30,989 nucleotides of DNA from a virus (taxonomy: Duplodnaviria > Caudoviricetes), in the IMG/VR virus record IMGVR_UViG_3300025035_000074, positions 1 to 30,989 of that record. One strand, given 5' to 3'. Position 1 is the stretch's first letter; each line of letters starts with the position of its first letter. The translations under genes and the position numbers were made by a program. Under the pieces are notes generated by a model. That model was not told where the DNA came from and made no database searches. It worked only from the letters and a program-made list of their open reading frames with translations. This document shows positions 164 to 29,710 of the stretch, one piece after another.

Positions 164-166
164 AGA

Positions 167-1593: not shown

Positions 1594-3549
1594 ATGACAA
1601 TGACATACTTCGCCAATCAACCACGCGAACAAGCAGTAGGTGAGATTGAAACACTCATCAATGATTACTACAGACACTTACAGACAAAAGGAATTCTACA
1701 ACTATGGGGGAAGAGTTATAACAACTACAACTCAGCAGTAGAGAACGGAGCATCAGTGTATAAAGTTGGTGATCAAAATGAATTGTCTGCGATTAAAGTC
1801 AACCACTATCGCAACTTCATCCAACACTTGATGAATCTGACTATCAATCAACGACCAGCGTTTGAACCACGCGCAACTAACTCTGATGTGAAGAGTCAAA
1901 CACAAACGATCTTGGCACGCGGGCTATTAGATTACTATATGCGTGAGAAACGATTGGAGAAGAACTTACGCACCGCAGTTGAGTTTAGTTTAGTTTATGC
2001 GGAAGGATATGTATCATCTATATGGAATGCTACTGCTGGCAAGGTTTACTCTGTTGATCCAGAGACTCAAATTGAAGTTCACGAAGGTGACATTGAATAT
2101 GAGGCACACGAACCATTTAACATCATTCGCGACACTAACTTAGAAGACTGGGCAAACAATAACTGGGTTGTTATCCGTAAGTTGATGAATAAATATGACC
2201 TTGCGGCGAAGTATCCAGAACTTGGGGATGACATTATCTCTACCTCACCTGATTCTATTTCACAATTTGATTATCGCATTAAACCTACTACTGTATCCAA
2301 CGATAGTTTAATTACAGTATATGAGTTCTACCACAATCGCACAGATGCAGTGCCAGATGGTCGCTTATTGACATTCATCAACAGCAGTATTGTTCTTAAC
2401 GATGGACCATTACCATACAGAAACATTCCACTATTTAGAGTTACTCCTGCTGATTTGATTGGCACCACAAGTGGCTATACTCCAGCATACGACTTATTGG
2501 CTCTACAAGACGGTGTCAACAGCTTATACTCTACTGTATTGACTAACCAGTTATCATTTGGCGTTCAAAATATTATGGCTCCAAAAGGTAATAACTTATC
2601 AGTTACTCAATTAGCAGGTGGACTAAACTTCATAGAATATGACTCACAACTTGGCAAACCAGAAGCACTTAACCTAACTTCAACTCCACCAGAAGTATTC
2701 AACTTCTTACAGATGCTGGAACATACAATGGAAACTATCAGTGGTGTCAATAGTGTTGCTCGTGGCAATCCAGAAGCGTCTTTGAAATCAGGAGCAGCAT
2801 TAGCACTCGTTCAATCAATGTCTATCCAGTTCGCACAACAGTTACAGCACAGTTATGTCCAGTTGTTGGAAGATGTAGGAACATCAACCATCAATATCCT
2901 GCGTGATTATGCAAGCGTCCCTCGTGTCGCAATGATTGCGGGCAAAGGGTCTCGTGGCATTATGCGTGAGTTTACTGGTGAGGATTTAGCACAAGTCAAT
3001 CGTGTTATTGTGGATGCTGGCAATCCAATGACAAGAACAACTGCTGGTAAGGTAGAGTTAGCTCAAATGATGATACAAGCAGGGTTAGTAAAAACCCCAG
3101 ACCAAATGTTACAAGTTATTCAAACTGGTAACCTTGACCCATTGATTGAAGGTCGCACTATTGAGTTACTTGCTATCAAGGCAGAGAATGAGTCATTAGT
3201 TGAAGGATTGCCAGTTTCAGTTATGATTACGGATGAGCATAAACTCCACATTTTAGAGCACAAAGCAACTATCAGTGACCCAGCAGTTAGAGAAGACTCA
3301 ATGGTAGTTCAATCAGTGACAGAACACATTATGGAACACTTTAGATTCTTAAGCGATCCTGCTGTCGCAAGTCTACTTACTCTACTTGGACAAGAGCCTA
3401 TCCAGACAACGCCTCAGCTGGGTGGTGCTCCAGTTCAAGGTGCTAACTTATCTACCTCAACGAATGAACTGGTTCAGCAAATGCAGCCAAATCAACCGTC
3501 AATGCCAACCAACCCGTTGACTAATGAGCAAGCACCATCGCCGGTATAA
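1594..3549 (+). CDS. Portal protein (podovirus/P22-like size)
   Basis: 651 aa between TerL and scaffold; ETISGVNSVARG...SGAAL segment typical of portals; Q/P-rich tail; RBS AAGGA. Confidence 0.85.
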   Translation: MTMTYFANQPREQAVGEIETLINDYYRHLQTKGILQLWGKSYNNYNSAVENGASVYKVGDQNELSAIKVNHYRNFIQHLMNLTINQRPAFEPRATNSDVKSQTQTILARGLLDYYMREKRLEKNLRTAVEFSLVYAEGYVSSIWNATAGKVYSVDPETQIEVHEGDIEYEAHEPFNIIRDTNLEDWANNNWVVIRKLMNKYDLAAKYPELGDDIISTSPDSISQFDYRIKPTTVSNDSLITVYEFYHNRTDAVPDGRLLTFINSSIVLNDGPLPYRNIPLFRVTPADLIGTTSGYTPAYDLLALQDGVNSLYSTVLTNQLSFGVQNIMAPKGNNLSVTQLAGGLNFIEYDSQLGKPEALNLTSTPPEVFNFLQMLEHTMETISGVNSVARGNPEASLKSGAALALVQSMSIQFAQQLQHSYVQLLEDVGTSTINILRDYASVPRVAMIAGKGSRGIMREFTGEDLAQVNRVIVDAGNPMTRTTAGKVELAQMMIQAGLVKTPDQMLQVIQTGNLDPLIEGRTIELLAIKAENESLVEGLPVSVMITDEHKLHILEHKATISDPAVREDSMVVQSVTEHIMEHFRFLSDPAVASLLTLLGQEPIQTTPQLGGAPVQGANLSTSTNELVQQMQPNQPSMPTNPLTNEQAPSPV

Positions 3550-3552
3550 ATA
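3545..3552 (+). promoter_or_regulatory. TATAAATA box (T4 late-promoter consensus) upstream of the scaffold gene
   Basis: Exact TATAAATA overlapping the portal stop, followed by a perfect 9-bp hairpin TGTGATCTT(3556-3564)/AAGATCACA(3577-3585). Confidence 0.6.
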
Positions 3553-3614
3553 CAGTGTGATCTTTACCATAATGATAAGATCACAATACTCTACACATAA
3601 AGCGAGAAATAAAA

Positions 3615-4571
3615 ATGACAACAGAAACATCATCTAGTGCCCCAGCGGCAAGCGTTAGCAGCGTATCATCATCTGCTGATACCTCTTCTTTAACAACAAC
3701 AACTAATACTACTGAATCAACAGAATACAATGCTGACGCAGTGAGCGCAGACATTGCGGCACTTGAAGCATCATTGGCAGATTTGCCAGCAGCAAAAACT
3801 TACAAAGTTAAAATTGATGGTCAAGACATTGAAGTAGATGAAAGTGAATTACTTAAAGGATATCAATCAACTAAATCCGCCCAACAAAGATTCAACGAAG
3901 CTGCTATGATGCGAAAACAAGCAGAGGAGTTTATCAAGATTGCGAAGACAGACCCACGCAAGCTGTTATCACATCCAGATATTGGGATTGATTTAAAAGA
4001 GTTTGCTAACTCAATCTTGCGTGAACAAATTGAAGAGCAAATGTTATCTCCAGAAGAAAAGGAGATGCGTGATACTCGTAAAAAGTTAGCCGAATATGAG
4101 CAAGCACGTAAAGAGCAAGAAGAAAATGCTAAACAAGCAGAAATGGACAAATATACTAAGTTATACGAAGAAGAATATACTTCTAAGATTGTGGGAGCCC
4201 TTGAAACCTCTGGTCTTCCAAAGACTGAGTCTACTGTTAAAAAGATGGCTTCAATGATGTTGTTGGCACTTGAGAACGGACTTGATGTTCAGCCAGCAGA
4301 TGTAGTTGAGTTCGTTCGCAGGGATTATATAGCAGAAGTGAAGAGTTTATTTGGTGCTGCCAATGAAGATATCATTCTATCATTGCTTGGTGACGATATC
4401 ACTAACAAGGTTGTTAAAGGACACTTGAAGAAGAGTAAACCTAAAATGACACCAGTTATGAATAAGATCACAGAGTTGACTAAACCATCAAATGCCTCTA
4501 CTACACCACAACGCAACTTGACTCGTGATGAATGGGCCAAGAGAATCTCAGAACGGGCTAAAGGAGGCTAA
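3615..4571 (+). CDS. Capsid scaffolding protein
   Basis: S/T-rich N-terminus, then KVKIDGQDIEVDESELLKGYQ motif typical of podoviral scaffolds, then a charged coiled coil; lies between portal and capsid. Confidence 0.82.
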   Translation: MTTETSSSAPAASVSSVSSSADTSSLTTTTNTTESTEYNADAVSADIAALEASLADLPAAKTYKVKIDGQDIEVDESELLKGYQSTKSAQQRFNEAAMMRKQAEEFIKIAKTDPRKLLSHPDIGIDLKEFANSILREQIEEQMLSPEEKEMRDTRKKLAEYEQARKEQEENAKQAEMDKYTKLYEEEYTSKIVGALETSGLPKTESTVKKMASMMLLALENGLDVQPADVVEFVRRDYIAEVKSLFGAANEDIILSLLGDDITNKVVKGHLKKSKPKMTPVMNKITELTKPSNASTTPQRNLTRDEWAKRISERAKGG

Positions 4572-4584
4572 ATTTATTCAATTG

Positions 4585-4592
4585 TATAAATA
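4585..4592 (+). promoter_or_regulatory. TATAAATA box upstream of the major capsid gene
   Basis: Exact T4-late consensus in the intergenic gap, followed by a 150-nt leader that can fold. Confidence 0.62.
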
Positions 4593-4742
4593 AGGATAAC
4601 ACAGTGACGCTAACGGCTATCACTTAGTTACTTTGTGAAGTATTGTATTAGGACCCAAGTGGCACCCTTTAATATAAGACTAATTAGGATTAGCGAGACA
4701 GAATTTAAAATTGCCAAATTATTACATTAAAGGAGAAATATA

Positions 4743-5999
4743 ATGGCTACTACTACAGATTTAACAGGTTTATTTAAAGAGGTTTACGGTCAAGAAGTTG
4801 TAAACTTAGTTCCAGAAAGTGCGTTGCTTGTAAAGGAAGTCCCTTTTACAACTCGCGACAAGCAGTTGGGTAACAAATATCACCAGCCAGTTATTGTTCA
4901 AATGGAACACGGCATTACCTATGCTGGTGCTGATGCTGGTGCGTTTGCTTTAAACAACGCAATTTCAATGAAGACACAAGACGCACAAGTTCAAGGTGCT
5001 CAAATGGTATTGCGTTCAACTTTGGATTACGAAAGTGCTGCTCGTGCTTCTGGTTCTAAGTCTGCGTTTATGGACGCAACTCAATTACAAGTTGAAAACA
5101 TGATTCAATCGTTGACAAAGCGTTTAGAATTGTCGTTGCTTTATGGCGCAGGCCCAACAGGTCTTGGAACCGTAGATGACACAACAAACGCAAACGCAAC
5201 AACAACAGTGTTGACATTCAGTGCTGCTGGTTGGGCTGCTGGTATCTGGGCAGGAACTGAAAATGCTCAAATTGATATCTTCAAGGTTGCTGATGGCGCT
5301 AAAGTCAACACTAATGGTGCTTTGACTATTGGTTCAATTGACACGTCTGCTCGCACAATCACCGTAACTGGTATTGCTGCTGACATCACTGCTATTGATA
5401 CCTACTCTCCAACTGATATGTTCGTTCGCTTCTTTGGTGCTAACGGTAACGAAATGGCTGGTTTGGACAAGATCCTTACTAACACTGGTGTGTTGTTTGG
5501 CATTGACGGTGGCGTTTACAATCTTTGGAAAGGTTCTACTTACGCTGTTGGTGGTGCGATCAGCTTCTCTGCTTTACAGACAGCAGTAGCAGTGGCAGTT
5601 GAGCGTGGTGGATTGGACGAAGATGTAAATGTATATTTGAATCCAAAGAAATGGGGTGTATTGTTAAATGACCAGGCTGCATTACGCAAGTATGACCAGT
5701 CTTACACAGCATCGTCTGTAGAAAATGGTTCTAAGACAATCGTATTCCACAGCCAGAACGGCACATTGCGTATTCACGCTCACCCATATGTTAAAGAAGG
5801 TGAAGCATTCGTGTTGCCAACTAAGCGTATCAAGCGTATTGGTGCTCAAGACATTTCGTTTGAAATCCCAGGCAGCAAAACTGGTGAGATCTTCCGTCAG
5901 TTGGAAAACAGCGCAGGCTTTGAATATCGCTTATACAGCAACCAGGCTATTGTATCTGAAACACCAGCAAAAATGGTGAAATTGACTGGCATTTCCTAA
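4743..5999 (+). CDS. Major capsid protein
   Basis: 418 aa after the scaffold; strong RBS AAAGGAG; LFKEVY N-terminus and KLTGI C-terminus typical of HK97-fold capsids; strong terminator follows. Confidence 0.85.
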   Translation: MATTTDLTGLFKEVYGQEVVNLVPESALLVKEVPFTTRDKQLGNKYHQPVIVQMEHGITYAGADAGAFALNNAISMKTQDAQVQGAQMVLRSTLDYESAARASGSKSAFMDATQLQVENMIQSLTKRLELSLLYGAGPTGLGTVDDTTNANATTTVLTFSAAGWAAGIWAGTENAQIDIFKVADGAKVNTNGALTIGSIDTSARTITVTGIAADITAIDTYSPTDMFVRFFGANGNEMAGLDKILTNTGVLFGIDGGVYNLWKGSTYAVGGAISFSALQTAVAVAVERGGLDEDVNVYLNPKKWGVLLNDQAALRKYDQSYTASSVENGSKTIVFHSQNGTLRIHAHPYVKEGEAFVLPTKRIKRIGAQDISFEIPGSKTGEIFRQLENSAGFEYRLYSNQAIVSETPAKMVKLTGIS

Positions 6000-6022
6000 G
6001 CAATAGGTAGTGTAGGTTATTA

Positions 6023-6059
6023 AAAGCCCCACAGTGAGCAATCATAGTGGGGCTTTATT
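6023..6059 (+). terminator. Rho-independent terminator after the capsid gene
   Basis: AAAGCCCCAC(6023-6032)/GTGGGGCTTT(6047-6056) stem with inner TGA-GCAA-TCA, then TTTATT. Confidence 0.85.
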
Positions 6060-6098
6060 GCTTTAATAATAAATAAGAGTATAAAAGGAAACAACTCT

Positions 6099-8117
6099 AT
6101 GACAATCGCACTAATAGTAAATGGTTCAACATACCAGTATCCAGAAAATGGTGATGTAAGTTGGGGCACACAAGCCACTAACTGGGCAGCAGCCATTACA
6201 AACTCAACATTACAGCCAACAGGTGGCACCTTCACACTCACTAATGATGTGAACTTTGGCATCAACTATGGTGTTCAAAGCAAATATTATAAATCAATCT
6301 CTACAAATGTGTCAGGATCAGGTATTGTTCGCCTATCTAATACTGATACCATCGCTTGGAGAAATGGCGCAAACACGGCTGACCTACCATTAACAGTTGT
6401 TTCAGATAACTTACGGTTTAATAACGCAGAGTTCGTAACTACTGCTGGCAGTCAAGCACTATCAAACAAAACTTATGCTGGAACATCACTGACATTATCT
6501 GGTGGCACTGCGCTTACCACAACAAATCACACTGGAACTGGTAGTTTAGTATTGGCAACGGCTCCAACCATCTTAAACGCTTCATTGACAACCCCAACAA
6601 TCACAAGCGCAACAATGATTACACCGTCTATTGGGGTAGCAACAGGAACTTCACTGAATGTTTCAGGGTCAGTCACTGCTAACAGTTTAGTATTAGGTGG
6701 TGGAACTGCGCTTACCACAACAAATCATACTGGAACTGGTAGTTTAGTATTAGCAACATCTCCAACGATTACAACTGCTACACTATCTTCGCCAACAATG
6801 ACCACTCCTGTCCTTGGAGTTGCCACTGCTACGTCAATCAATAAAGTAACAATCACTGCGCCAACATCAAGTGCTACACTAACGATCGCAAATGGCGGAA
6901 GTCTTACTACAACTGGTGCGCACAGCATTACATTATCATCTACTGGTCTAACTTCTATTACTCTACCAACATCTGGAACACTATCTACAGTGGCAGGAAC
7001 TGAAACACTCTCTAATAAAACATTTACCCAACTTTATACAGCAGATAACACAGCAAAAATGTTACAACCAGATGATTTTATCTCAGATACAATCGTTTAT
7101 GGATTAATACCACCTGTTTCTGGAACACTATCGTCAACACATCCGGATGGAGTGGGTTATGTTGCTGGCGTTCGTGTTATAATAGATCCAAAGCCAAAAA
7201 CTTATACAGCATCTCGTGACACTTATGTGGATGTTACTCCAACTGGGAGTTATGTTTATACGGCAGTGACACTTGGAGCAGCCGCCCCTGCGATCACATC
7301 ACCTAATATGCGCATCTGTAAGGTGGTGACAGATGGGACAACAGTATCAAGTGTTGTGGTGCTAAAGGGAGCAGCAACAAACTTTGGGTTTAATGCTGGT
7401 GGAAATATTACAACTGGATATAATAACGTCAACTATGGTGAAAATGCAGGTGCGTCTATTACAACTGGGTATGAGAATGCTAACTTCGGGTTTAATGCTG
7501 GTGAAAGTATTACTGATGGATTCACTAATGTAAACTTTGGACCATATGCTGGGAATACAATAATTAGCGGATATGAGAACATCAACATTGGTGCGTATGC
7601 TGGTCAGAATACAACATTTGGCTACGAGAATGTATGTATTGGTCCAGAAGCAGGAGCAAGCATTACCTCTGGTGATACAAATGTCTGTATTGGCTATCAA
7701 TCAGGTGTAACTGCTACTCCTGCTAATGCTACCACGACTGGTGGAAATAATGTGTTTATTGGTGTATTAACTGGATCAAGTGTTCCTACACAACTATACG
7801 GAGGTATTGCGATTGGATACGGCGCAACAGTAAGCCGTTCAGGTGAATATGTTATTGGAACACTTGGAACCATTCAGCAAATCCCAGAAGGTGAGGATGC
7901 TGCGATGGGGATCGCAACTCTGGTGGCTGGAACAGTCACAGTAATTAATGGTTTAACCCGTGCCAATAGTCGTATATTTCTTACCACTAATGTCCCGGGT
8001 GGCACAGTAGGAACACCTTACATTTCTGATATAAGTGCCGGAACATCATTTACTATCACTTCTACTTCAGGTGCTGATACTTCGCAAGTTGCTTGGCACA
8101 TCATTAACCCACAATAA
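6099..8117 (+). CDS. Fibre protein (head or tail fibre) with YadA-like G-x-x-AG repeats
   Basis: T/S/G-rich shaft with a duplicated segment GGTALTTTNHTGTGSLVLAT (DNA repeat at 6501 and 6699); ~17-aa repeats such as NFGFNAGGNITTGYNN; beta-rich C-terminal knob; AATAAATA at 6068-6075 upstream. Confidence 0.7.
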   Translation: MTIALIVNGSTYQYPENGDVSWGTQATNWAAAITNSTLQPTGGTFTLTNDVNFGINYGVQSKYYKSISTNVSGSGIVRLSNTDTIAWRNGANTADLPLTVVSDNLRFNNAEFVTTAGSQALSNKTYAGTSLTLSGGTALTTTNHTGTGSLVLATAPTILNASLTTPTITSATMITPSIGVATGTSLNVSGSVTANSLVLGGGTALTTTNHTGTGSLVLATSPTITTATLSSPTMTTPVLGVATATSINKVTITAPTSSATLTIANGGSLTTTGAHSITLSSTGLTSITLPTSGTLSTVAGTETLSNKTFTQLYTADNTAKMLQPDDFISDTIVYGLIPPVSGTLSSTHPDGVGYVAGVRVIIDPKPKTYTASRDTYVDVTPTGSYVYTAVTLGAAAPAITSPNMRICKVVTDGTTVSSVVVLKGAATNFGFNAGGNITTGYNNVNYGENAGASITTGYENANFGFNAGESITDGFTNVNFGPYAGNTIISGYENINIGAYAGQNTTFGYENVCIGPEAGASITSGDTNVCIGYQSGVTATPANATTTGGNNVFIGVLTGSSVPTQLYGGIAIGYGATVSRSGEYVIGTLGTIQQIPEGEDAAMGIATLVAGTVTVINGLTRANSRIFLTTNVPGGTVGTPYISDISAGTSFTITSTSGADTSQVAWHIINPQ

Positions 8118-8121
8118 TATT

Positions 8122-10467
8122 ATGAGTATACCATTAGTTGTTGACAATGTAACTTATAACTATCCCACAGATAATGATTTGGACTGGGGATATCAAGCAT
8201 CTGAGTGGGCTGCCGCGATCACTGATAGTGTAGTGAGTGGTGGTGGGTCAGGTGGACTATCTGGATTAAACTCTATTGCTGACTTACGAGCATTAGTCAG
8301 GACAATACAAACCCGTGTATCTGTAATAAGTTACTATGGTGATAATAATGGAGGTGGTGGAGTATTTTATTATGTTGACCCAGTAGAGGGAGTATCACAC
8401 ATTGACGATGCTGGTGTCACTATCGTCGCTAACGACGGGACAGTGTGGAAGCGTGCTAATGTTGATACAATAAATGTAAAATGGTTTGGTGCTCGTGGTA
8501 ATGGAACCGGGGATGATGCACCTACTATGCAGGCAGCATTGGACTATGCGGGTCAGGTGGCACTATCTCGTGGTAACGCATCAGTTTATATTCCTGCCGG
8601 GGTATACCCTGTTTTCGCATCAGTAGATAACTATTTATGGTTGTATGCTCGTCCAAATAGAACTAACTATGCGGCATTATTTGTTGATAGTAATGTAACA
8701 GTATTTGGCGATGGCTGGGGGTCTAAAATAAAGTTGATGAGCACTCCATCAAGCCCAGGAACAACTGATGGCCGTGGTGATTATGCTACAACTCACATAT
8801 TAGCCAATAGAGGTGCGGTTGGATTACCATCAAAGATTGTTGACTACAACATATATGTGCACGATTTAGGTTTTGATGGAAACTTGATACATGAAAGTGG
8901 TGAGTGTGTTACACTGTGTGCTGTATCACAGTTCGCAATCACTAACTGTTTCTTTGAGAACACCTTCTTTGAGTGTTCATATATGGTGTATTCACGAAAC
9001 GGGTTATGGATGAACAATCACTCCCATAAATGCGGTTTGCCACCAACAGAAATATTGAATGACGGCGGCGGACCAATGCTTGATACATGCTCACATGTTA
9101 TTATCACTAACAACACAATGGTTGATATTGGATACTATGCAGTATTAGTTATTGACAGTTGGGATTGCTCTGTTAGTAATAATATTGTTAAAGAGCAAGA
9201 TTATCCAAGTAGTGCTGGATATCAGGCTATCCGTGTTCAAGGTGGATTTAGACTGATTGTAGAGAATAATAAGATTTGGAGAGCAGGATATAATGGTATT
9301 TGGGTCAACAATAGCAATAACTGTATCATTAGAAACAATGTCACTATCCAATGTGGGTTTGGGTCTGGTGGTGGTAACCAAATCGCTGGCATTCAAGTAG
9401 AAGCAGATAAAGGAAAACCAAATGGTGGTCACCTCATTGATGGAAACTACTCTGCATTAAACAAAGGTGGTGGGATATCCTGTGTTGATGCATATACACA
9501 GAATGATATAATACAATATCAAAGTGGGCATACCATCACTAACAATACATGTGTCTATAATGGCAGAGATGGTATTGCAGTGTATGGTGAAAATCATAGA
9601 TTGACCAATAATGTTTGCTCCAGCAATGGCACTGATGTTACTGACGGAGTAGTTGGCAATGGTTACTCTGGTATCTCACTCGCAGGTGCAAAATATTGCT
9701 TAGTTAGTGGGAATACTTGTTTGGATTGGATTGTAACTAACCCAGCACCTATGAACTTGGACGCTTGGGTGGGGGAATCAAAGAATACATTCGCACCCGT
9801 ATATATAACTCACCCAGTGAAAACACAAAACTATGGGATATATGAAGGGATTGGATTCTTAGGTGAGTTACAGGTAAACACCACAGTTATTAAATCATTA
9901 TTACAACCTGACCCAGGTGGTTATTGGCAGTGGAAGATAGAAGAATATGGTCCTCCACCAGCAATCTACAAATCTGGTGTTGTAAGATACACAGCCATTA
10001 TCAACTTTGAGGGGCAATGGGTAGATTTGTATGGTGATGTCATTGCAGAACTTAGTAATGATTACTATACTGTAGCAAGCGATACACATTGGGAAGAGAT
10101 AATGTTAGCATCAATGAGTGTATATACTGTAGATGGGTCGCCACATAACTTATTGGCTGGCTCTACTGTTCTACTATCAGATAGGAGAGATACCGAAGGT
10201 GTGCTATTATCTGGTTTATATACAGTATTGGAAGTGACTAGTGCATCCTCGTTCATTGTAAATCTTGAAGGTTACTACCCACAACCCAAAGACGGGGACT
10301 ATACAGGAGAGTTATGGATAAGTGAAACGATTGTGCCAGCAGATTACAATATCATAACTGGAAACAATGTGCGAGATAACATGGCAGTATCCGGAATAGG
10401 ACACTATCAAAGTAGTTTTTTTACATCCGGTGTAAACTCAACAATACACACAAATATTGGTCAATAA
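8122..10467 (+). CDS. Tailspike-like pectin-lyase-fold (parallel beta-helix) protein, putative depolymerase
   Basis: GGGVFYY...DDAG...GTVWKR, then INVKWFGARGNGTGDDAPTMQAALD...VYIPAGVY (pectate_lyase_3-type start), then N-rich beta-helix repeats. True start is probably ATG8122 (MSIPLVV), not 8035. Confidence 0.8.
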   Translation: MSIPLVVDNVTYNYPTDNDLDWGYQASEWAAAITDSVVSGGGSGGLSGLNSIADLRALVRTIQTRVSVISYYGDNNGGGGVFYYVDPVEGVSHIDDAGVTIVANDGTVWKRANVDTINVKWFGARGNGTGDDAPTMQAALDYAGQVALSRGNASVYIPAGVYPVFASVDNYLWLYARPNRTNYAALFVDSNVTVFGDGWGSKIKLMSTPSSPGTTDGRGDYATTHILANRGAVGLPSKIVDYNIYVHDLGFDGNLIHESGECVTLCAVSQFAITNCFFENTFFECSYMVYSRNGLWMNNHSHKCGLPPTEILNDGGGPMLDTCSHVIITNNTMVDIGYYAVLVIDSWDCSVSNNIVKEQDYPSSAGYQAIRVQGGFRLIVENNKIWRAGYNGIWVNNSNNCIIRNNVTIQCGFGSGGGNQIAGIQVEADKGKPNGGHLIDGNYSALNKGGGISCVDAYTQNDIIQYQSGHTITNNTCVYNGRDGIAVYGENHRLTNNVCSSNGTDVTDGVVGNGYSGISLAGAKYCLVSGNTCLDWIVTNPAPMNLDAWVGESKNTFAPVYITHPVKTQNYGIYEGIGFLGELQVNTTVIKSLLQPDPGGYWQWKIEEYGPPPAIYKSGVVRYTAIINFEGQWVDLYGDVIAELSNDYYTVASDTHWEEIMLASMSVYTVDGSPHNLLAGSTVLLSDRRDTEGVLLSGLYTVLEVTSASSFIVNLEGYYPQPKDGDYTGELWISETIVPADYNIITGNNVRDNMAVSGIGHYQSSFFTSGVNSTIHTNIGQ

Positions 10468-10491
10468 TAAATAAACGAAATGGAGGATATT

Positions 10492-10818: not shown

Positions 10819-10830
10819 AGGACATATATT

Positions 10831-14226: not shown

Positions 14227-14229
14227 AAT

Positions 14230-14649: not shown

Positions 14650-14666
14650 CACTGGGACACATCACT

Positions 14667-16478: not shown

Positions 16479-16482
16479 TATT

Positions 16483-17697: not shown

Positions 17698-17701
17698 TAA
17701 C

Positions 17702-19201: not shown

Positions 19202-19203
19202 TA

Positions 19204-20706: not shown

Positions 20707-20723
20707 TGAGAAGAGAGTAAAAT

Positions 20724-21347: not shown

Positions 21348-24334
21348 TGGCTTATGTAAATAAATTTAAACGATCAGCAACACCAGGTAAAGTTCCTACC
21401 ACAAGTGATTTAGAACTTGGTGAAGTATCCATCAACACATACGACGGTCGTATGTATATGCGGATCAACAACGGTGTAGATGCTATAGTTGAGATAACAG
21501 GATCTGGGATTACGGGCAATCCTGCGTGGGGTTTGATCACTGGCTCTATTGGAGCACAAACTGATTTACAAACTGCTCTAAGCACAAAACAACCACTTGA
21601 TGGCGATTTAACTGCTATTGGCGCACTTACTGGGACATTTGGTCTGCTTAAAAAGACTGCTGCCAACACTTGGGAGTTAGACGCAACTGGTTACGCAAGT
21701 GCGACTCATGTCCATACTGGTGTGTATGAACCAGCAAATGCTAATATTCAGTCACACATTAGTTCCACATCTAACCCACACAATGTAACAAAAGCACAGA
21801 TCGGGTTAGACAATGTTAATAACACAAGTGATATTAACAAACCTGTTTCTATTGCCTCTCAAACTGCTTTAGATTTAAAGAGTAATATAGGACACACTCA
21901 CACCGGAGTATATGAGCCAGCAAATGCTAACATTCAAACTCACATTAGTGACACTAACAACCCACATAGTGTAACTGCTAACCAAGTTCTTCCAACACAA
22001 ACTGGAAATAGTGGAAAAGTATTAGGAACAGACGGAGCAACAGTAAGTTGGGTAGTAATGTCAGGTGGTGGTGGTGACATATATCAGCCAGTTGACGGTG
22101 ATTTGACTGCCATTGCTGCTTTGTCAGGAACAAGTGGGTTATTGAAGAAAACTGCTGCTAATATTTGGACATTAGATACTAATGCTTACACTACTAATAC
22201 TGGAACGGTAACTTCTGTTGCTGCTATAACTCTTGGAACTACCGGAACAGATTTAAATTCATCAGTCGCAACTGGAACAACTACTCCAGTTATTACACTG
22301 AATATCCCTACCGCAAGCGCAAGTAATAGAGGTGCGTTATCTGCTGCTGATTGGACTACTTTTAATAATAAGCAACCAGCAGGTTCTTATTTGACATCAG
22401 CCGTAACATCTGTTAGTGGGAATGGCACAGTATCTGGGCTAACATTATCTGGATCAGTAACAACTACTGGAAGTTTAACATTAGGCGGCACCTTAGCAGT
22501 TACCCCAAGTAACTTTACATCACAAACGCAAAAGACATTCCTCGCTGCCCCAAACGCAATTAACGGGACACCCTCATTTAGAACAATTGTATCAAGTGAT
22601 ATCCCCACATTAAATCAAAATACAACTGGTAGCGCAGGATCTACTGCTGCTTCAATAACATTTAACAACAGTGGCATAGGGGATGCCAGCGGTTCTACAT
22701 TTAACGGATCGTTATCACGCACAATTTCGTATAATAGTATTGGCGCAAGCCCATTGGCAGGTAGTGTAAGTCTTACAACTACAGGAACAGTAACAACTGG
22801 CACTTGGTCTGGATTATTTGGTGCTGTGTCAGGAGCAAATCTTACTACACTAAACGCAAGCAATTTATCATCTGGAACTGTTGGAACAGCAAGGTTAGGA
22901 ACTGGCACGGCAGACAGCACAACTTACTTACGAGGTGACGGCACTTGGGCTACTCCTACTGGTGGAGGGGGTGGTGGTGGTAGTGGAGTAACATCTGTCG
23001 CAATGACAGTGCCAACTGGATTGACTGTCACTGGATCACCTATTACATCAGTAGGAACACTGGCTCTGACAATGACTGCTGGCTATGCGATTCCAACTAC
23101 AGCAAGTCAAACTAACTGGAATACAGCATATACTGATAGAAATAAGTGGGATGGCGGTTCTACTGGGTTAACCGCATCTACTGGTCGCACCAGTTTAGGG
23201 GCAAATACTGTTGGCAGCAACCTATTCACATTATCCAATCCGTCTGCGATTACATTTCTGAGAATCAATGCTGACAACACTGTATCTACACTAAATGCTG
23301 CTGATTTTAGAACCGCAATAGGGGCAGGCACAAGTTCTACTACTGGAACAGTAACTTCTGTTGCTGCTATAACTCTTGGAACTACCGGGACAGATTTATC
23401 GTCAAGCATTGTTAATGGAACTACCACTCCAGTTATTACATTAAACGTCCCTACCGCAAGCGCAAGTAATAGAGGTGCGTTATCTGCTGCTGATTGGACT
23501 ACTTTTAATAATAAGCAACCAGCAGGTTCTTATTTAACATCAGCCGTAACATCTGTCGCAATGACAGTGCCAACTGGATTGACTGTCACTGGATCACCTA
23601 TCACATCAACCGGCACTTTGGCTCTGGCAATGACTGCTGGCTATGCGATTCCAACTACAGCAAGTCAAACTAACTGGAATACAGCATATACTGATAGAAA
23701 TAAGTGGGATGGCGGTTCTACTGGGTTAACCGCATCTACTGGTCGCACTTCATTAGGCGGAACAACTGTTGGGTCAAACTTCTTTACTCTAACAAATCCA
23801 ACTGCTATTACTTTTCCACGAATCAATGCTGATAATACAGTATCAACACTAAATGCTGCTGATTTTAGAACCGCAATAGGGGCAGGCACAAGTTCTACTA
23901 CTGGAACAGTAACTTCTGTCGCAGCACTAACTCTTGGAACTACCGGAACAGATTTAAATTCATCAGTCGCAACTGGAACAACTACTCCAGTTATTACACT
24001 GAATATCCCAACTGCGTCTGCTGCTAATAGAGGTGCTTTATCTGCTGCTGATTGGACTACTTTTAATAATAAGACAAGTAATACAGGAACAGTGACTACA
24101 GCATCTGTAGTAACAGCTAACGGATTCGCAGGAACAGTTGCGACCGCCACATCTACACCAGCAATAACAGTTTCAACAACAGTTACCGGTTTAGTAAAGG
24201 GTAATGGAACAGCACTTTCAGCAGCAACAGCAGGGACTGACTATTTGGCATTCAGTGGTTTATCTAAAATCACAGTGGGGACTACTGCCCCAAGTTCACC
24301 AGCAGTTGGTGATTTATGGTTTGATACTAACTAA
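21347..24334 (+). CDS. Long repetitive tail fibre
   Basis: N-terminal KRSATPGKVPTTSDLELGEVSINTYDGRMY anchor module; NPHNVTKAQIGLDNVNNTSD module; several internal duplications; ends in TAPSSPAVGDLWFDTN. Confidence 0.82.
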   Translation: MAYVNKFKRSATPGKVPTTSDLELGEVSINTYDGRMYMRINNGVDAIVEITGSGITGNPAWGLITGSIGAQTDLQTALSTKQPLDGDLTAIGALTGTFGLLKKTAANTWELDATGYASATHVHTGVYEPANANIQSHISSTSNPHNVTKAQIGLDNVNNTSDINKPVSIASQTALDLKSNIGHTHTGVYEPANANIQTHISDTNNPHSVTANQVLPTQTGNSGKVLGTDGATVSWVVMSGGGGDIYQPVDGDLTAIAALSGTSGLLKKTAANIWTLDTNAYTTNTGTVTSVAAITLGTTGTDLNSSVATGTTTPVITLNIPTASASNRGALSAADWTTFNNKQPAGSYLTSAVTSVSGNGTVSGLTLSGSVTTTGSLTLGGTLAVTPSNFTSQTQKTFLAAPNAINGTPSFRTIVSSDIPTLNQNTTGSAGSTAASITFNNSGIGDASGSTFNGSLSRTISYNSIGASPLAGSVSLTTTGTVTTGTWSGLFGAVSGANLTTLNASNLSSGTVGTARLGTGTADSTTYLRGDGTWATPTGGGGGGGSGVTSVAMTVPTGLTVTGSPITSVGTLALTMTAGYAIPTTASQTNWNTAYTDRNKWDGGSTGLTASTGRTSLGANTVGSNLFTLSNPSAITFLRINADNTVSTLNAADFRTAIGAGTSSTTGTVTSVAAITLGTTGTDLSSSIVNGTTTPVITLNVPTASASNRGALSAADWTTFNNKQPAGSYLTSAVTSVAMTVPTGLTVTGSPITSTGTLALAMTAGYAIPTTASQTNWNTAYTDRNKWDGGSTGLTASTGRTSLGGTTVGSNFFTLTNPTAITFPRINADNTVSTLNAADFRTAIGAGTSSTTGTVTSVAALTLGTTGTDLNSSVATGTTTPVITLNIPTASAANRGALSAADWTTFNNKTSNTGTVTTASVVTANGFAGTVATATSTPAITVSTTVTGLVKGNGTALSAATAGTDYLAFSGLSKITVGTTAPSSPAVGDLWFDTN
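22988..24073 (+). repeat. 558-bp (186-codon) near-tandem duplication within the fibre gene
   Basis: GTAACATCTGTCGCAATGACAGTG... begins at 22988 and again at 23546. The TVTSVAAITLGTTGTDL...WTTFNNK sub-module occurs three times (~22200, ~23341, ~23900). Confidence 0.9.
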
Positions 24335-24345
24335 TAGGAGATGAT

Positions 24346-25503
24346 ATGGCTATTAGTTATATAGGGTCAGCATCTGGCATTAAGACTGTTTCAATACCAG
24401 CACATCAAAGAGATGATCTTATTATCATCTTTGCGTTTAGAGATGGTAATGTAACAGCACCTGCTCTTCCAGCAGGATGGACGAATATAAGATTTGCTGG
24501 CGCAAACGCCTGCTCAGGAAGAATTGGTTATAAATTAGCATCATCGTCAAGTGAAGTGTCAGGCACGTGGGCGAATGCTTCCTCAGTAGTATGCGCAGTA
24601 TATCGTGGGGTCAATCGTGCGACACCCATTGGCGGTAATAGCACTTCTGCTGCGGCAAGCACAAATGTTACTTATAATACAGTTACTATGGCAAACTCAA
24701 CTGGCTCTAGTTGGGTAGTTGGGGTAGCAGGACACCGCGCAGTCAATACTAACTTACAGAATGCACCTACGGGGATGACAAACCGTATCAATGTAGTAGA
24801 TGCAGCAGACGAAGCATCATTACACGACACAAACGGAGGGGTAACAAGTTGGGCAGCAACTAGTGTGGCAGTGGCTGGCACATCAGCTGGATGGAGAAGT
24901 TTTACTGTTGAACTTCTCGCTGAAGCAGCATTTTCTACAACTGAAGTATATGCTACCTCTTGGTTTGATGGAAATACTACTACTCCAAACAACGCACTTG
25001 GAGCAGCAGACGGAACTTTTACAGAAGATACTACTGGTTTTGATTGGTATGGTCAATGGAATATGGGGAATCCTGGTCATCCGCTAAATGGAAGATTACA
25101 ACGATTAGAAATAACGTGTAGGTCACATATTTTAGGAGCATCATATCTTGATTCAGTTGATATTTACTATAACAATGTATATTCTGAATCAGCAACACTT
25201 ACTAACATAAACAATACTGTAATCTCAACGACTGGGCAGGTGTTGACTTACACATTCCCAGCACATTATTTGTCCAGCGGAACTGATATGGCACAAATAG
25301 GTATATATGCGGTTAAAGGAACAGCAATATTACAAATAGATAGTATTAAATGGATAGCATATCACGACGAAATTCCACCAACCAGTGGAACACTAAAATA
25401 CTGGACTGGATCTGCGTGGGCACCTAAGACACTAAAATACTGGACTGGATCTGCGTGGGCACCTAAGACACTAAAATACTGGACAGGAAGTTCTTGGGTG
25501 TAA
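24346..25503 (+). CDS. Putative fibre-tip adhesin / receptor-binding protein
   Basis: AGGAG RBS; beta-rich DDLIIIFA...PAGWT module; three C-terminal TLKYWTGS(A/S)W repeats. Confidence 0.68.
   Translation: MAISYIGSASGIKTVSIPAHQRDDLIIIFAFRDGNVTAPALPAGWTNIRFAGANACSGRIGYKLASSSSEVSGTWANASSVVCAVYRGVNRATPIGGNSTSAAASTNVTYNTVTMANSTGSSWVVGVAGHRAVNTNLQNAPTGMTNRINVVDAADEASLHDTNGGVTSWAATSVAVAGTSAGWRSFTVELLAEAAFSTTEVYATSWFDGNTTTPNNALGAADGTFTEDTTGFDWYGQWNMGNPGHPLNGRLQRLEITCRSHILGASYLDSVDIYYNNVYSESATLTNINNTVISTTGQVLTYTFPAHYLSSGTDMAQIGIYAVKGTAILQIDSIKWIAYHDEIPPTSGTLKYWTGSAWAPKTLKYWTGSAWAPKTLKYWTGSSWV
25390..25500 (+). repeat. 39-bp tandem repeat (two perfect copies plus a diverged third)
   Basis: ACACTAAAATACTGGACTGGATCTGCGTGGGCACCTAAG at 25390 and 25429; third copy starts at 25468. 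Confidence 0.95.
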
Positions 25504-25526: not shown

Positions 25527-25534
25527 TATAAATA
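25527..25534 (+). promoter_or_regulatory. TATAAATA box upstream of the holin-like gene
   Basis: Exact T4-late consensus in an intergenic gap. Confidence 0.58.
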
Positions 25535-25948: not shown

Positions 25949-26298
25949 TGAATTATACGAAAATATATGATTCACTTATAAATGCCGCATTGTATAGAGA
26001 ATATACAAAGAGACCATCAGAAGTTCATCATATACTTCCTCGCTCAATGGGCGGAACCAACGATTCAGAAAACTTAGTTAGATTGACTGTTAGAGAACAC
26101 TTTATTGCTCATTTACTATTGTATAAAATGGGATATAACACTCAAATCTTCTCAGTCAAAGCAATTATTCAAGATAGTTTAAATCCAGAGTGCGCCCACA
26201 GATATAAGTTGCCTAAGATAAGATACACAAAGTATATTAGACGACAAATATCCATAACTAATGCGCAAATAAACATATATAGGAGAAAACAAAGATAA
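25948..26298 (+). CDS. HNH endonuclease (free-standing homing-endonuclease type)
   Basis: MNY.KIY..LI...EVHHILPRSMGGTNDSENLVRLTVREHFIAHLLL matches the HNH core of phage Mob-type nucleases. Confidence 0.88.
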   Translation: MNYTKIYDSLINAALYREYTKRPSEVHHILPRSMGGTNDSENLVRLTVREHFIAHLLLYKMGYNTQIFSVKAIIQDSLNPECAHRYKLPKIRYTKYIRRQISITNAQINIYRRKQR

Positions 26299-26306
26299 AT
26301 AAAAAT

Positions 26307-26397
26307 GGACAGTCTGAGACGGCTAATCTCAGATTATTTGATTTATTCCTTTCATAGTTAAAGATCAAGCGATTCAGAAATGTATCGCTTTTTCTTT
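26307..26397 (+). ncRNA. Candidate ~90-nt small RNA
   Basis: Bounded by GATAAATA (26294-26301) and an intrinsic terminator; 5' hairpin TCTGAGA/TCTCAGA; unpaired ATTCCTTT core. Confidence 0.4.
26367..26397 (+). terminator. Rho-independent terminator
   Basis: AAGCGAT-TCA-GAAA-TGT-ATCGCTT followed by TTTCTTT. Confidence 0.75.
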
Positions 26398-26414
26398 GAA
26401 TGGATAAATAATAT

Positions 26415-26527: not shown

Positions 26528-26974
26528 ATGAAAACAACTATACAAATAAACAACACTATCAACGACTCTCAAATTGAAGTTTGGAACTTGCTCAGGACAT
26601 CACCTGATCAACTTCGTGTTCTAAAACTGATAGAGAACATCTTGGATAACGATTATCGTAAGCCCAGTATGGAGCAAGCATTAGTCACTGCCCAACGGTA
26701 TGTGGCTGAGGAAAATAATAATGCCTCAAATGATTGGGAAAGAGTGTCAAACAAAACAGTTGATTTTAGATCTATTTGGAAGAGAATGCCAAAGCATCGT
26801 TATTGCGACTTAGTTATTCGTAGATCAGAGGTAAACCCAACTTATACTGGATTGTATTGTCAACAGCATAACAAGTTATTACAATGGGTAAATGACTATC
26901 AAATTTATTGGTTGATGCATCCATCTGACACTGGTATAATTAACGAAACAAACAACACTGGGAGATATCTATGA
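26528..26974 (+). CDS. Hypothetical protein (first gene of the replication operon)
   Basis: AAGGA RBS; overlaps the next gene by ATGA; H-x-x-C ... C-x-x-H could bind a metal. Confidence 0.7.
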   Translation: MKTTIQINNTINDSQIEVWNLLRTSPDQLRVLKLIENILDNDYRKPSMEQALVTAQRYVAEENNNASNDWERVSNKTVDFRSIWKRMPKHRYCDLVIRRSEVNPTYTGLYCQQHNKLLQWVNDYQIYWLMHPSDTGIINETNNTGRYL

Positions 26975-28155
26975 ACTATACTCCAAACTTCACTGATAAG
27001 AGAGTCATTAAACGAGTCAAGCGAGTGCTTGGGTTCTTGCTATCTCAGATGAAACCGAATAAGCCAAGAGAACTAAGCCGTAACTACTTGAGTAAGATCT
27101 TTGGGCAATCACAAAACGACCTAACTAATTATCTCCGGGAGTCTTGCTTGATCACAACTGATGAGAAGTATTACTTCTTTGCGAGTCCAATGGCAAAGAG
27201 ACCAGGACGAGTTGATTCTGGTAAGTGTAAGGAGTATAAAATTAACGAGTCCAGTATCAATGAGTTGATAACCAGATGCGGTATCACTAAAGAGGAAGTT
27301 ATTCCGAAGAAACCCGTTCGCCTTAATGATGCTCACACCACCACTCGCCCCTATTGTATTACTTCTTTTGGAACGCTAGAACTTGAAGTAATTAAATTTG
27401 GGTTAGCACTTAACTCAGCAGAATACGAGTTTAGCTCAATGCTTGATTCAAACAAGATCACTTACTTTGATAAGTCAAACAGACTATTTGGTGGGACACA
27501 AAACTTAGTGAAACCAGTTAAACAACAACTCCATTACAACCACAACTATTGTTATGAATATGATATTGAAGCCTGTGCCCCAACATTACTACTCCAATAC
27601 GCAAAGAAACTTGGATTGCGTAAAGCACCAATCATTGAATTCTATCTGAACAACAAATCAGAAGTAAGAAATGAAGTATCACGCAACACAGGAATTGATG
27701 TAAAGATCGTTAAACGAGTAATTAACGCATTATTTGCGGGTGCTCGCACTGATGGATCCATTGCTAGCGAGATCAATAACAAAGAACAGCTCAACAAATT
27801 TAAATCCAACGAGTTCGTTAAATCACTCATCAAAGATATCTCTAAAATGTGGGTCGCAATCAAACCAAGTGTTGGAGTCAGATATAACAGCAAGGCAGGT
27901 AAACTAGAAAAGAGATTATCACCGGGAACTAAGTGGTCTGTTTACTTTAAACTAGAGAGAGAAGTTCTTGATGTAGTTAGAGCTTATCTTTGCGAGTCCA
28001 GTAACAACTGTGTGCTTGAACATGATGGATGGACTACAACTAAACGAATCAATGTTGGCGAGTTAACTGCGGTGATTGAATCAAAGACTGGGTATCAAAT
28101 CAAACTGAGTGAAGTAGAACTAAAAGATGTAGTTCTCATTCCGTGGGTGATTTAA
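26971..28155 (+). CDS. Compact family-A-polymerase-palm protein (TV-Pol-like primase/polymerase or replication initiator)
   Basis: Motif A YEYDIEACAPTLL (D198), motif B R...KRVINALFAGA, E in FKLERE, motif C VLEHDGW (H351-D352). The N-terminal ~110 aa look wHTH-like; no exonuclease domain. Confidence 0.68.
   Translation: MNYTPNFTDKRVIKRVKRVLGFLLSQMKPNKPRELSRNYLSKIFGQSQNDLTNYLRESCLITTDEKYYFFASPMAKRPGRVDSGKCKEYKINESSINELITRCGITKEEVIPKKPVRLNDAHTTTRPYCITSFGTLELEVIKFGLALNSAEYEFSSMLDSNKITYFDKSNRLFGGTQNLVKPVKQQLHYNHNYCYEYDIEACAPTLLLQYAKKLGLRKAPIIEFYLNNKSEVRNEVSRNTGIDVKIVKRVINALFAGARTDGSIASEINNKEQLNKFKSNEFVKSLIKDISKMWVAIKPSVGVRYNSKAGKLEKRLSPGTKWSVYFKLEREVLDVVRAYLCESSNNCVLEHDGWTTTKRINVGELTAVIESKTGYQIKLSEVELKDVVLIPWVI
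27286..27375 (+). repeat. Copy 1 of the 60-bp element (core 27316-27375), inside the polymerase-like gene
   Basis: GTTCGCCTTAATGATGCTCACACCACCACTCGCCCCTATTGTATTACTTCTTTTGGAACG, identical to copies 2 and 3; the upstream ~30 nt are also shared with copy 3. Confidence 0.95.
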
Positions 28156-28157
28156 GT

Positions 28158-28351
28158 GTTCGCCTTAATGATGCTCACACCACCACTCGCCCCTATTGTA
28201 TTACTTCTTTTGGAACGGAATAGAACAGAGCAGAACATAACTAAAAGAGGAAGTTATTATTCCGAAGAAACCCGTTCGCCTTAATGATGCTCACACCACC
28301 ACTCGCCCCTATTGTATTACTTCTTTTGGAACGGAATAGAACAGAGCAGAA
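28158..28351 (+). repeat. Copies 2 and 3 of the 60-bp element (28158-28217, 28274-28333); candidate replication origin
   Basis: 116-bp period; both copies are followed by GAATAGAACAGAGCAGAA; non-coding, starting 2 nt after the polymerase-like stop. Confidence 0.9.
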
Positions 28352-28473
28352 TAGAACACTAAGATACAATAATTGAAAAATAACTCATTCTAATCACCAC
28401 TTCTATTGACTGGGGACTAACTAACATACTACTTAAAAAATACAGGCATAAAACCAGTCAAAACGAGCACAAA

Positions 28474-28525
28474 ATGAGCCATTATTTAACAGAAATCACA
28501 CAGAATCTACCAAATAATGGCTCAT
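28474..28525. repeat. Perfect 14-bp inverted repeat with 24-nt spacer
   Basis: ATGAGCCATTATTT(28474-28487)/AAATAATGGCTCAT(28512-28525). Confidence 0.85.
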
Positions 28526-28552
28526 AACTAACACAAATTTAAAGAGGATACT

Positions 28553-28828
28553 ATGGCAAGACTAACACTCAACAAGGTAACATCAAAAGAAGGCAATAAC
28601 TTATTCAGAGAACAAATCATTTGGGACAGCGATGATGTAATTCCAAAGAGGTTTATAACAGATGATATCAAACCAATAAAGAACGGAACAAGTTTTTCAA
28701 GATCAGTCCATTTTATAACACTAACTGAAACATCGTCGGTGGCAAAGATCATTGAAATGAGATGCCGCTATTATGAAACATTAAATGTGAAAATAAATCG
28801 TATAGATGTCAAATTAGCTCGTAAATAA
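28553..28828 (+). CDS. Hypothetical protein
   Basis: AGAGGA RBS, 91 aa. Confidence 0.65.
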   Translation: MARLTLNKVTSKEGNNLFREQIIWDSDDVIPKRFITDDIKPIKNGTSFSRSVHFITLTETSSVAKIIEMRCRYYETLNVKINRIDVKLARK

Positions 28829-28903
28829 CCAAATATGCTGTTATAATTATTAAATAGTATATGCTAAATACTTTTATACAGCAAACAAAAAGGAGCGTAT
28901 AAA

Positions 28904-29281
28904 ATGATACAACTACACGAACAAGACTTAGAGATAATAACAGAAGCATTAATTCTGGTAACAGAGTATAAAGCAGTTGCTTTATCAGCAAAGAAATTCA
29001 ATATTTTTAACACTTACTGGTTACCTGAAGCGATTGCCCAAATTGAAAAGAATAACTTTAAACTAAACCACCCAAAGAAGAATGTCTTCATTTGGATAAT
29101 TGACCAGATCAATCACTGTAACTTACTATCACAAGGAGTTAAACCAGAATACGGCTATCCACTTAGCAAGACTAAAACTGGTGAAGCAGCAATCAGCATT
29201 TGCGAGAAAGCAGCAAGAGGCAAATCCGCTTACTTAGCAGCCACAAGAGGTGAAAACAACTTCACAAAATTATTTGATTAA
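28904..29281 (+). CDS. Hypothetical protein
   Basis: AAGGAG RBS, 125 aa; TAAATA boxes upstream. Confidence 0.72.
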   Translation: MIQLHEQDLEIITEALILVTEYKAVALSAKKFNIFNTYWLPEAIAQIEKNNFKLNHPKKNVFIWIIDQINHCNLLSQGVKPEYGYPLSKTKTGEAAISICEKAARGKSAYLAATRGENNFTKLFD

Positions 29282-29299
29282 CATAAAGGAAAAAATAAA

Positions 29300-29641
29300 A
29301 TGAACACTACAACACAAACACCACAAACAACAGAAGTAACTCGTTTACAAGCAAAAGGTCGCCCAGTCAATCCAGACAAATGGATATCTGGACCAGACCC
29401 AACTGCGCACCGTTATTACGGAGCATTCACCCAACAACGAAACCAAGCAAAATTCAGAAAAGAAGGTTGGAATATGACATTCGCTGAATGGTATGCTATT
29501 TGGGGTCACAACATTATCAACAGAGGGCGGAAGAAATCCCAATTGACAATGACTCGTCCAAACATTAATAAGCCCTGGTCTGTTGACAATGTTCTTATTA
29601 TTACACGATCAAACAATGTAACACTAAAGGAAATCATTTAA
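29300..29641 (+). CDS. Small basic protein with degenerate HNH/His-Me-finger-like core
   Basis: QAKFRKEGWNMTFAEW...RGR...MTR.....PWSVDNV.IITR resembles phage HNH-like proteins; AAAGGA RBS. Confidence 0.55.
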   Translation: MNTTTQTPQTTEVTRLQAKGRPVNPDKWISGPDPTAHRYYGAFTQQRNQAKFRKEGWNMTFAEWYAIWGHNIINRGRKKSQLTMTRPNINKPWSVDNVLIITRSNNVTLKEII

Positions 29642-29710
29642 CTAAATACAATGTGACGATACCCAAACTGGATTCGTCACTGTTAACTAACCATAAAGAG
29701 ATAACACAAA

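Follow-up and report, generated by a model that had tools for sequence, protein, structure and literature searches.

TAAATA boxes and a TV-Pol-like Rep protein in a small podovirus whose late genes may depend on the gp55 of a helper phage

The viral record IMGVR_UViG_3300025035_000074 (Caudoviricetes), a stretch of 30,989 nucleotides (nt) that is called the window here at its full length, holds a podovirus genome in which a short box, TAAATA, precedes many genes and resembles the late promoters of the T4 family. These promoters are described as being read by the late sigma factor gp55 together with gp33 and gp45 (PMC1524935, PMC7892883), and the question raised by this locus is what reads the boxes of the window, where no gp55, gp33 or sigma domain is detectable by sequence. 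An original prediction, made from the letters alone, proposed that the phage is transcribed only in cells co-infected by a T4-like or large myovirus. Our analysis leads to a modified form of this proposal, to which we give a probability of roughly 0.6, namely that the window phage would be a satellite virus whose late genes need the gp55 of a co-infecting helper. This helper would probably be a freshwater jumbo-type myovirus that encodes gp55.

Position of the TAAATA box in the window and its relatives

All 13 of the 13 8-mers listed in the original prediction are found at their coordinates. The conserved core is not TATAAATA, as had been supposed there, but TAAATA preceded by A or C. Genome-wide, the box occurs at chance level (31 copies of TAAATA with 32.8 expected, 24 of them on the + strand; 12 copies of ATAAATA with 9.5 expected). 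When compared with null models it is enriched before gene starts and in gaps, as predicted, and depleted deep in coding DNA: 15 boxes lie 8-150 nt before starts (3,974 nt) and eight in deeper coding DNA (26,663 nt), which is a ratio of 12.6, compared with 0.3-2.7 for six control hexamers. The 15 gaps of at least 10 nt contain 10 boxes versus 3.0 in 5,000 shuffles (P = 0.002) and one on the minus strand, deep coding DNA contains 6 versus 13.0 after synonymous-codon shuffling (P = 0.01), and gene ends contain 8 versus 4.4 (P = 0.065). Among all 4,096 hexamers, TAAATA ranks first before the window's starts under a second-order and fourth under a first-order null (P ~1e-4, uncorrected), which for the window alone is only suggestive, and the proof therefore rests on the relatives. 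With respect to single sites, the predicted location in gaps or just upstream of starts applies to many of them, but those at 1525, 14617, 16457 and 20698 fall within the last part of the preceding gene, and those at 3545 and 26294 overlap a stop codon. Similarly, deep coding DNA is indeed poor in boxes, but more + strand copies lie deep in genes than had been noticed (295, 13359, 21357).

The relatives comprise loci with a homolog of the window's replication protein Rep (57 after 7 of 64 had been dropped as redundant), loci chosen by the window's capsid (12 of 80 dropped; 67 ranked) and gp55 loci (37 after 42 of 79 had been dropped). Their genes were called by a simple script, which performs poorly in GC-rich genomes, and T4-like fragments as well as gp55- or Rep-bearing controls were moved out of the sets for the counts of start spacing, composite promoters and C-terminal tails given below. 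Before the starts of the 57 Rep loci, none of the 4,096 hexamers ranks above TAAATA (328 versus 110-126 expected), whereas in the 67 loci chosen by capsid its rank is 233-947; Rep is carried by only 1 of 50 capsid relatives. The box is enriched in 20 of 21 whole Rep genomes (upstream/coding ratio 5.5-97, P ≤ 0.011), which have podovirus or siphovirus modules and a GC content of 37-58%, and 7 of 10 same-capsid genomes without Rep show no such enrichment. Rep is the only gene common to all 20 box-bearing Rep genomes, and a box lies at most 300 nt before it in 30 of 53 loci (14.1 expected). The boxes are real. A logo of 344 sites has A or C before the core, T rarely just upstream of it and no conserved -35 element, and only 27 of the 328 upstream hits in Rep loci overlap a stop codon. 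The ATAAATA and CTAAATA (Aeh1-type) variants described for T4-family late promoters match this logo (PMC1524935). The provirus G084, at 55% GC, has 13 upstream boxes versus one in coding DNA. Besides Rep, this provirus (L169, L170) has genes for H-NS and for an integrase of small size, together with three that are GIY-YIG-like.

The reader of the box

T4 late promoters are described as lying at -13 to -6 (PMC1524935), and a box followed after five nucleotides by the start codon (TAAATA-N5-ATG) thus puts the A of ATG at +1. This arrangement is found at 24 of 430 genes in the 37 gp55-phage loci (1.1 expected) and at 31 of 1,327 genes in the small Rep phages (2.0 expected), compared with 0 of 1,075 in controls; three other hexamers show no such spike. 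Nine such sites were counted in one jumbo record of 278 kb. It follows that the reader of the box in this clade likely starts RNA where the gp55 holoenzyme does, as far as start spacing can tell. The predicted gp55-type character of the promoters thus agrees with the absence of a conserved -35 element, with the T4 geometry in the clade and with the co-occurrence of gp55 in a phage of the window's capsid family, G039.

G039 is a podovirus of 35 kb, complete as judged by its terminal repeats, which has no Rep but its own gp55-like sigma factor and a box ratio of 29.7. It is the only gp55 carrier among the 50 capsid relatives and seems, from its gene content, to be a small phage that captured a late sigma. 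It lacks gp33, which would be explained by the basal transcription that gp55 alone is described to give (PMC7892883). G074, a GC-rich P22-like phage, has Rep and a divergent gp55-like sigma and not a single TAAATA box, and G001, the closest capsid relative fetched, has a box ratio of 7.7 with neither Rep nor gp55 and with a different primase-helicase. Since Rep is neither needed for the box (G039, G001) nor sufficient for it (G074), the box follows the logic of gp55 and not that of Rep.

A reader encoded by the window phage itself, which the original prediction had left to be sought among the small open reading frames (ORFs), was not found by sequence profiles. The gp55 PHROG gave no match in the window at E ≤ 1 and none in 21 near-complete Rep records, and a profile of 52 gp55 sequences matched only G039 and G074 among 13,954 six-frame segments of 31 genomes, with a best value of E = 16 in the window. 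In profile-profile comparisons with gp55, 11 window ORFs or domains reached at most 3.1% (positive control, 94.9%; four window ORFs had no homologs for a profile), and so did eight small protein families, although such profiles could miss a very divergent sigma2-fold protein, which tells against helper dependence. The only match to gp33 among 28 records was in a T4-like fragment, and of these 28 the three that matched Sigma70_r2 all carry gp55. The clamp family PF09116 gave a match in none of five records scanned, but four gp55 jumbo phages were negative as well; in family scans of the window no clamp was matched. No small gene is common to more than 10 of the 20 box-bearing Rep genomes.

Rep has links to gp55 phages as well. 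Three T4-like or jumbo fragments carry it (L041:7217-8182, L023:9926-11431, L062:9989-11119), beside gp55/gp47/gp46 or UvsY/primase. In GTDB, Rep occurs in four loci, three of which are integrase islands of Burkholderiales (L293, L294 and L295 in Duganella, Caballeronia and Janthinobacterium, respectively; one at tRNA-Pro); the remaining locus, a short contig of a metagenome-assembled genome, is phage-like. Each of the three islands has two boxes within 230 nt before Rep, whereas two boxes before one gene were seen at 0 of 259 sampled host genes. No virion genes were seen in 21 kb of the islands; their cargo includes a second small tyrosine recombinase, DUF6641, TIR, and an AbiEii-type ATPase or ApeA (defence). 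It is possible that these islands are anti-phage satellites triggered by gp55. A protein of the phage G061 is 52% identical to a jumbo-phage ORF. A family of small genes known from gp55 jumbo phages recurs with 52% identity in a Rep phage (L174:3752-4360) and, as judged by eye, in the island of Caballeronia (L294:8875-9174) and another Rep phage (L032:3007-3300).

Rep and the other genes of the window

The predicted fold of Rep is confident (pLDDT 89.8). Its winged-helix-like N-terminal domain was read from secondary structure and not searched alone. The core aligns best to DNA polymerases (Klenow: Z 12.2, root-mean-square deviation (rmsd) 3.9, 216 residues aligned), and all Foldseek matches among those listed are PolA-type. 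In a viral structure library Rep matches virophage primase-polymerases or replication proteins, and there are structural matches to D5-fused clusters of Preplasmiviricota as well. Across 67 homologs R171, D198, K248 and H351-D352-G353 are invariant, and Rep has the minimal family-A core with the catalytic residues and without a nuclease domain that marks TV-Pol. The TV-Pol domain recognised in the original prediction is supported by these structural neighbours, on which the family placement of Rep as TV-Pol-like depends, and by the conserved catalytic residues. A single-subunit RNA polymerase of the T7 type was considered for Rep and scored low, since the match to Klenow is better than that to the RNA polymerase of T7 (Z 9.9, rmsd 5.2, 237 aligned) or that to N4 RNAPII (Z 8.1), and the motif has only six bases. 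One copy of a repeat lies inside the Rep linker and two further copies lie behind the gene, which suggests a predicted origin, like an origin inside the gene of its initiator. The 9-nt core of the repeat recurs in the linker and at the end of Rep in 24 of 62 loci; the pattern was derived from the same loci after the data had been seen, which counts against the proposal. With 1,210 representatives at E ≤ 1e-10, the family of Rep is a large one. It had no match among the solved sequences and plasmids searched, nor in the cultured-phage collection, from which helper dependence would predict it to be missing. In a quick tree the T4-like Reps stand in two places, and one origin is possible.

The genome of the window phage measures 30.8 kb and is apparently complete, as predicted, with a terminal repeat of 163 nt; all large genes are on the + strand (Table 1). 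It encodes its own capsid and packaging proteins and an HNH protein. The predicted lack of recognisable sigma, RNA polymerase, clamp, helicase, SSB and integrase genes was confirmed in family scans of 27 ORFs and again in 17 rescanned ones, and no processive polymerase was matched in the scans. No endolysin was found either, as had been stated, though with one qualification: the sole lysis-labelled match is a partial one of an 833-aa (amino acids) tail protein to an 'amidase' PHROG. The capsid, which as a single sequence matched nothing and gave matches in an alignment-based scan, is distantly related to a Silvanigrella prophage capsid (32%), and no close cultured relative of the window was found. 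An ORF across the terminal repeat (window 30800-30989 and 1-186) encodes a two-helix membrane protein, which we take to be holin-like from its look. The putative ejection protein at 14667-16478 has a C-terminal CFI-box-CTERM domain that scores slightly below the NCBIfam cut-off. Hairpins behind boxes were folded at 23 sites and are not used as evidence, because no control set was available.

Table 1. Coordinates of boxes, candidate promoters, repeats and genes, in the window unless a locus is named
Feature	Position	Strand	Remarks
TAAATA box	1527..1532	+	inside TerL end, 67 nt before portal gene; second at 1491
TAAATA box	3547..3552	+	on portal stop codon, 68 nt before scaffold-like gene; hairpin follows
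TAAATA box	4587..4592	+	156 nt before major capsid gene
TAAATA box	6070..6075	+	directly after terminator-like hairpin, 29 nt before first tail-fibre gene
TAAATA box	10468..10473	+	12 nt before 112-aa ORF that opens the adaptor/nozzle block
TAAATA box	14619..14624	+	48 nt before first putative ejection-protein gene
TAAATA box	16459..16464	+	24 nt before putative ejection-protein gene (404 aa)
Two overlapping TAAATA boxes	20696..20705	+	28 and 24 nt before second fibre block
TAAATA box	25529..25534	+	57 nt before 120-aa coiled-coil/membrane ORF and HNH gene
Tandem TAAATA boxes (26296, 26405)	26296..26410	+	before replication operon; hairpin after each
Three TAAATA boxes (28822, 28851, 28865)	28822..28870	+	before 125-aa ORF
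TAAATA box with hairpin	29643..29648	+	68 nt before block leading into TerS, then across the junction holin-like ORF and TerL
Candidate host sigma70 promoter	26912..26940	+	10/12, 17-nt spacer, extended -10, 30 nt before Rep; consensus match only
Second candidate host sigma70 promoter	26857-26885	+	10/12, 85 nt before Rep; consensus match only
Rep, 394 aa	26971..28155	+	winged-helix-like N-terminal domain, disordered linker 116-133, family-A polymerase core; TV-Pol-like
Repeat, three copies (27316, 28158, 28274)	27316..28364	+	9-nt core at 27349, 28191, 28307
148-aa ORF	26528..26974	+	C-terminal part rich in Cys/His; family also present in 19 other Rep loci; unlike gp55
125-aa helical ORF	28904..29281	+	C-terminal F-x-x-L-F-D, as in DNA polymerases of jumbo phages
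Self-encoded podovirus virion module	149..25503	+	TerL, P22/SU10-like portal, scaffold-like protein, SU10-like capsid, fibres/spike, adaptor, nozzle-like and ejection-like proteins
Terminase small subunit (TerS)	30376..30813	+	family match
gp55-like sigma of G039	L202:11532-11942		without gp33
Divergent gp55-like sigma of G074	L183:11721-12377

Helper dependence and its alternatives

In the proposed lifestyle, host sigma70 would drive Rep and some few early genes ahead of any helper, which may lead to a waiting state, as an episome in the window phage and integrated in some relatives. After arrival of the helper, host RNA polymerase with the helper's gp55 would open the TAAATA promoters. Rep would prime at its own origin, with helicase and processive polymerase supplied by the helper or the host, the 125-aa protein may dock onto the helper's clamp, and lysis would be brought about by the helper's endolysin. 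The docking would be mediated, in analogy to the clamp-binding tails of T4, by the predicted clamp-docking tail of the 125-aa protein, for which no named match was obtained in a structure atlas search. Tails of the form F-x-x-L-F, a pattern chosen after inspection of the data, end 18 of 1,392 Rep-phage proteins versus 4 of 1,122 in controls (P = 0.016), and they occur on unrelated small proteins. Four jumbo-phage polymerases that are close kin of one another share the tail, and among the 324 proteins of G103 it is seen on the polymerase and on no other. As the jumbo clamp, the 244-aa ORF that follows the polymerase can be named as a guess at most. Both the late choice of the pattern and the kinship of the polymerases lessen the weight of the argument, and the host beta-clamp is an alternative partner. 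The same tail was noticed on proteins of Rep phages that look by eye like DNA methyltransferases (G083, G090, L022, L059), which suggests methylation coupled to the fork.

Several other findings also weigh against helper dependence, above all against a strict one. In the Rep genomes, intergenic sigma70-type promoters at 11/12 are enriched (20 versus 0.6), such a promoter is present in 11 of 53 Rep upstream regions (2.5 expected), and 9 of 20 genomes have a strong sigma70 site close to a gene start; sites near starts would also fit an ordinary cascade from early to late genes, run by some unrecognised activator of the phage. Composite promoters, in which the box lies in the spacer of a sigma70 site, make up 17 of 98 sites in Rep phages, compared with none of 49 in controls and none of 59 in gp55 loci. 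The window phage has no integrase and no recognised way to await or meet a helper, it has no TAAATA-N5-ATG site (the closest is an N6 at 10468), and it has no protein in common with the jumbo phage G103 at E < 1e-8. G007, which carries neither Rep nor gp55, has three upstream boxes versus none (P = 0.008), and the upstream AT profiles of Rep and gp55 loci are only weakly correlated (r = 0.27, P = 0.08). The original claim that the phage is transcribed only in co-infected cells therefore does not hold as it was put, given the sigma70 enrichment in the clade and the two candidates before Rep, and the dependence is more likely to lie at the late, virion-making stage. In the region that holds these two candidates, the total of sigma70 candidates is at chance (29 versus 20.8, standard deviation 5.0), and no site of at least 10/12 lies in the window's 11 larger intergenic regions or before its virion genes.

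An autonomous phage, in which a sigma70-driven early gene encodes the reader of the box, either a diverged sigma2-fold protein or Rep as activator or minimal RNA polymerase, is in our view unlikely. It would account for the sigma70 promoters in early regions and for the tracking of Rep by the box across virion types, the Rep core aligns to T7 RNA polymerase as well, and two small phages with their own gp55-like sigma and no gp33 illustrate that captured sigma factors occur in this neighbourhood. However, Rep is dispensable for the box as well as insufficient, its best matches are DNA polymerases and its gene has origin-like repeats, the long conserved promoter typical of single-subunit polymerases is missing, and the low profile scores against gp55 cover both window ORFs and small families. 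With any one small gene present in at most half of the 20 genomes, several different unknown factors would be required.

Still less probable is a facultative parasite with a weak cycle or persistence on host enzymes, the late expression of which is merely boosted by the gp55 of a co-infecting phage. The composite promoters fit such a phage, and window genes of any size lie on one strand with few terminators, which makes read-through from early promoters possible; the lack of sigma70 sites in the larger intergenic regions and before the virion genes speaks against it, and so does the depletion of the box in deep coding DNA, which is expected of heavily used promoters. That a sigma factor of the host reads the box is very improbable. 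In its favour one can name the distant relation of the window's capsid to that of the Silvanigrella prophage; against it, gp55 is absent from all four host genomes with Rep, and in 400 kb of two of them TAAATA ranks 86-195 without an N5 spike. The GC range of the carriers implies many hosts, and the logo has no second conserved element of the kind known for sigma28 or sigma54. The consensus of an archaeal TATA box was compared as well; it scored low, with T rare just upstream of the core. A purely compositional origin of the signal, from the AT-richness of gaps and from stop codons of the TAA type, to which the chance-level genome-wide count and the two window sites on stop codons might point, is refuted by the hexamer ranks and the N5 spike, and shuffles, control hexamers, GC-rich carriers and the small share of stop overlaps reject it as well.

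Comparison with known systems and biological meaning

With the late promoters of the T4 family (PMC1524935, PMC7892883) the window shares the short -10-like box, the missing -35 element and the position before virion genes. These promoters are described as starting RNA 5-6 nt downstream, and here the likeness of the window is that of the box-to-ATG spacing of its clade. Unlike T4-like phages, which encode gp55 and gp33, the window has neither, its boxes also precede replication and accessory genes, and it is a 31-kb podovirus and not a T4-like myovirus. MiniFlayer and MulchRoom, two satellite viruses of Streptomyces, are described as having, like the window, their own capsid and packaging genes, as lacking key replication genes and as depending on a virulent large helper, MiniFlayer without an integrase (PMC10690885). 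They differ in having no replicase at all, and the accessible text of that account reports no promoter analysis, whereas the window encodes Rep together with a complete set of tail proteins, and what it is predicted to need is the late sigma of the helper. Judged by the genes from which it is known here, the window phage most likely behaves as satellite viruses of the MiniFlayer type or virophages do.

P4, PICI, cf-PICI, PLE and Ando are likewise described as helper-dependent (PMC10690885, PMC13587820), as is PICMI. Satellites of the P4/PICI class take capsids or tails from the helper, whereas the window carries its own genes for head, tail and fibres and lacks an integrase. Of the features that define PICI, P4, PLE and cf-PICI, i.e. 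an integrase with chromosomal residence and the absence of capsid and tail genes, the window has none, which agrees with the difference from these satellites asserted in the original prediction; integrase and chromosomal residence are seen only in the related islands and in provirus G084. The Burkholderiales islands, with integrase, Rep and defence cargo and no virion genes, resemble that class. The virophage Sputnik uses the late signals of mimivirus. The parallel drawn to it holds as a functional analogy and for the shared polymerase fold, but not as kinship. The TV-Pol family, including Sputnik V13, is described as having a minimal family-A core, and it shares with Rep the conserved Arg, two Asp and the Lys of the fingers (PMC2579912). 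Rep differs from these relatives in that a D5 helicase is neither fused nor adjacent, in its winged-helix-like N-terminal domain and in its tailed-phage context.

No published account of such a system was found in the literature on gp55, late promoters, satellites and helper phages, a search that took in few subscription papers and no supplements. The phage satellites described so far rely on their helper for capsids, tails or replication. If the reading given here is true, the window phage would be a complete tailed phage that needs only the late transcription factor of its helper, missed by satellite finders and counted as an ordinary lytic phage. The chances are about even that it belongs to a guild, widespread and polyphyletic, in which tailed phages and islands in chromosomes have in common a module of TV-Pol Rep and origin as well as gp55-read promoters. 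The members of this guild would borrow the late sigma and clamp of T4-like and jumbo myoviruses while the phages build their own virions, and they would be the analogues of virophages in bacteria. Cultured strains of Janthinobacterium and Caballeronia carry Rep islands with tandem boxes and are therefore testable members of this guild. T4-like and jumbo phages would then have parasites of their own, which could be found by a promoter-based test, and this form of parasitism between bacterial viruses would be new.

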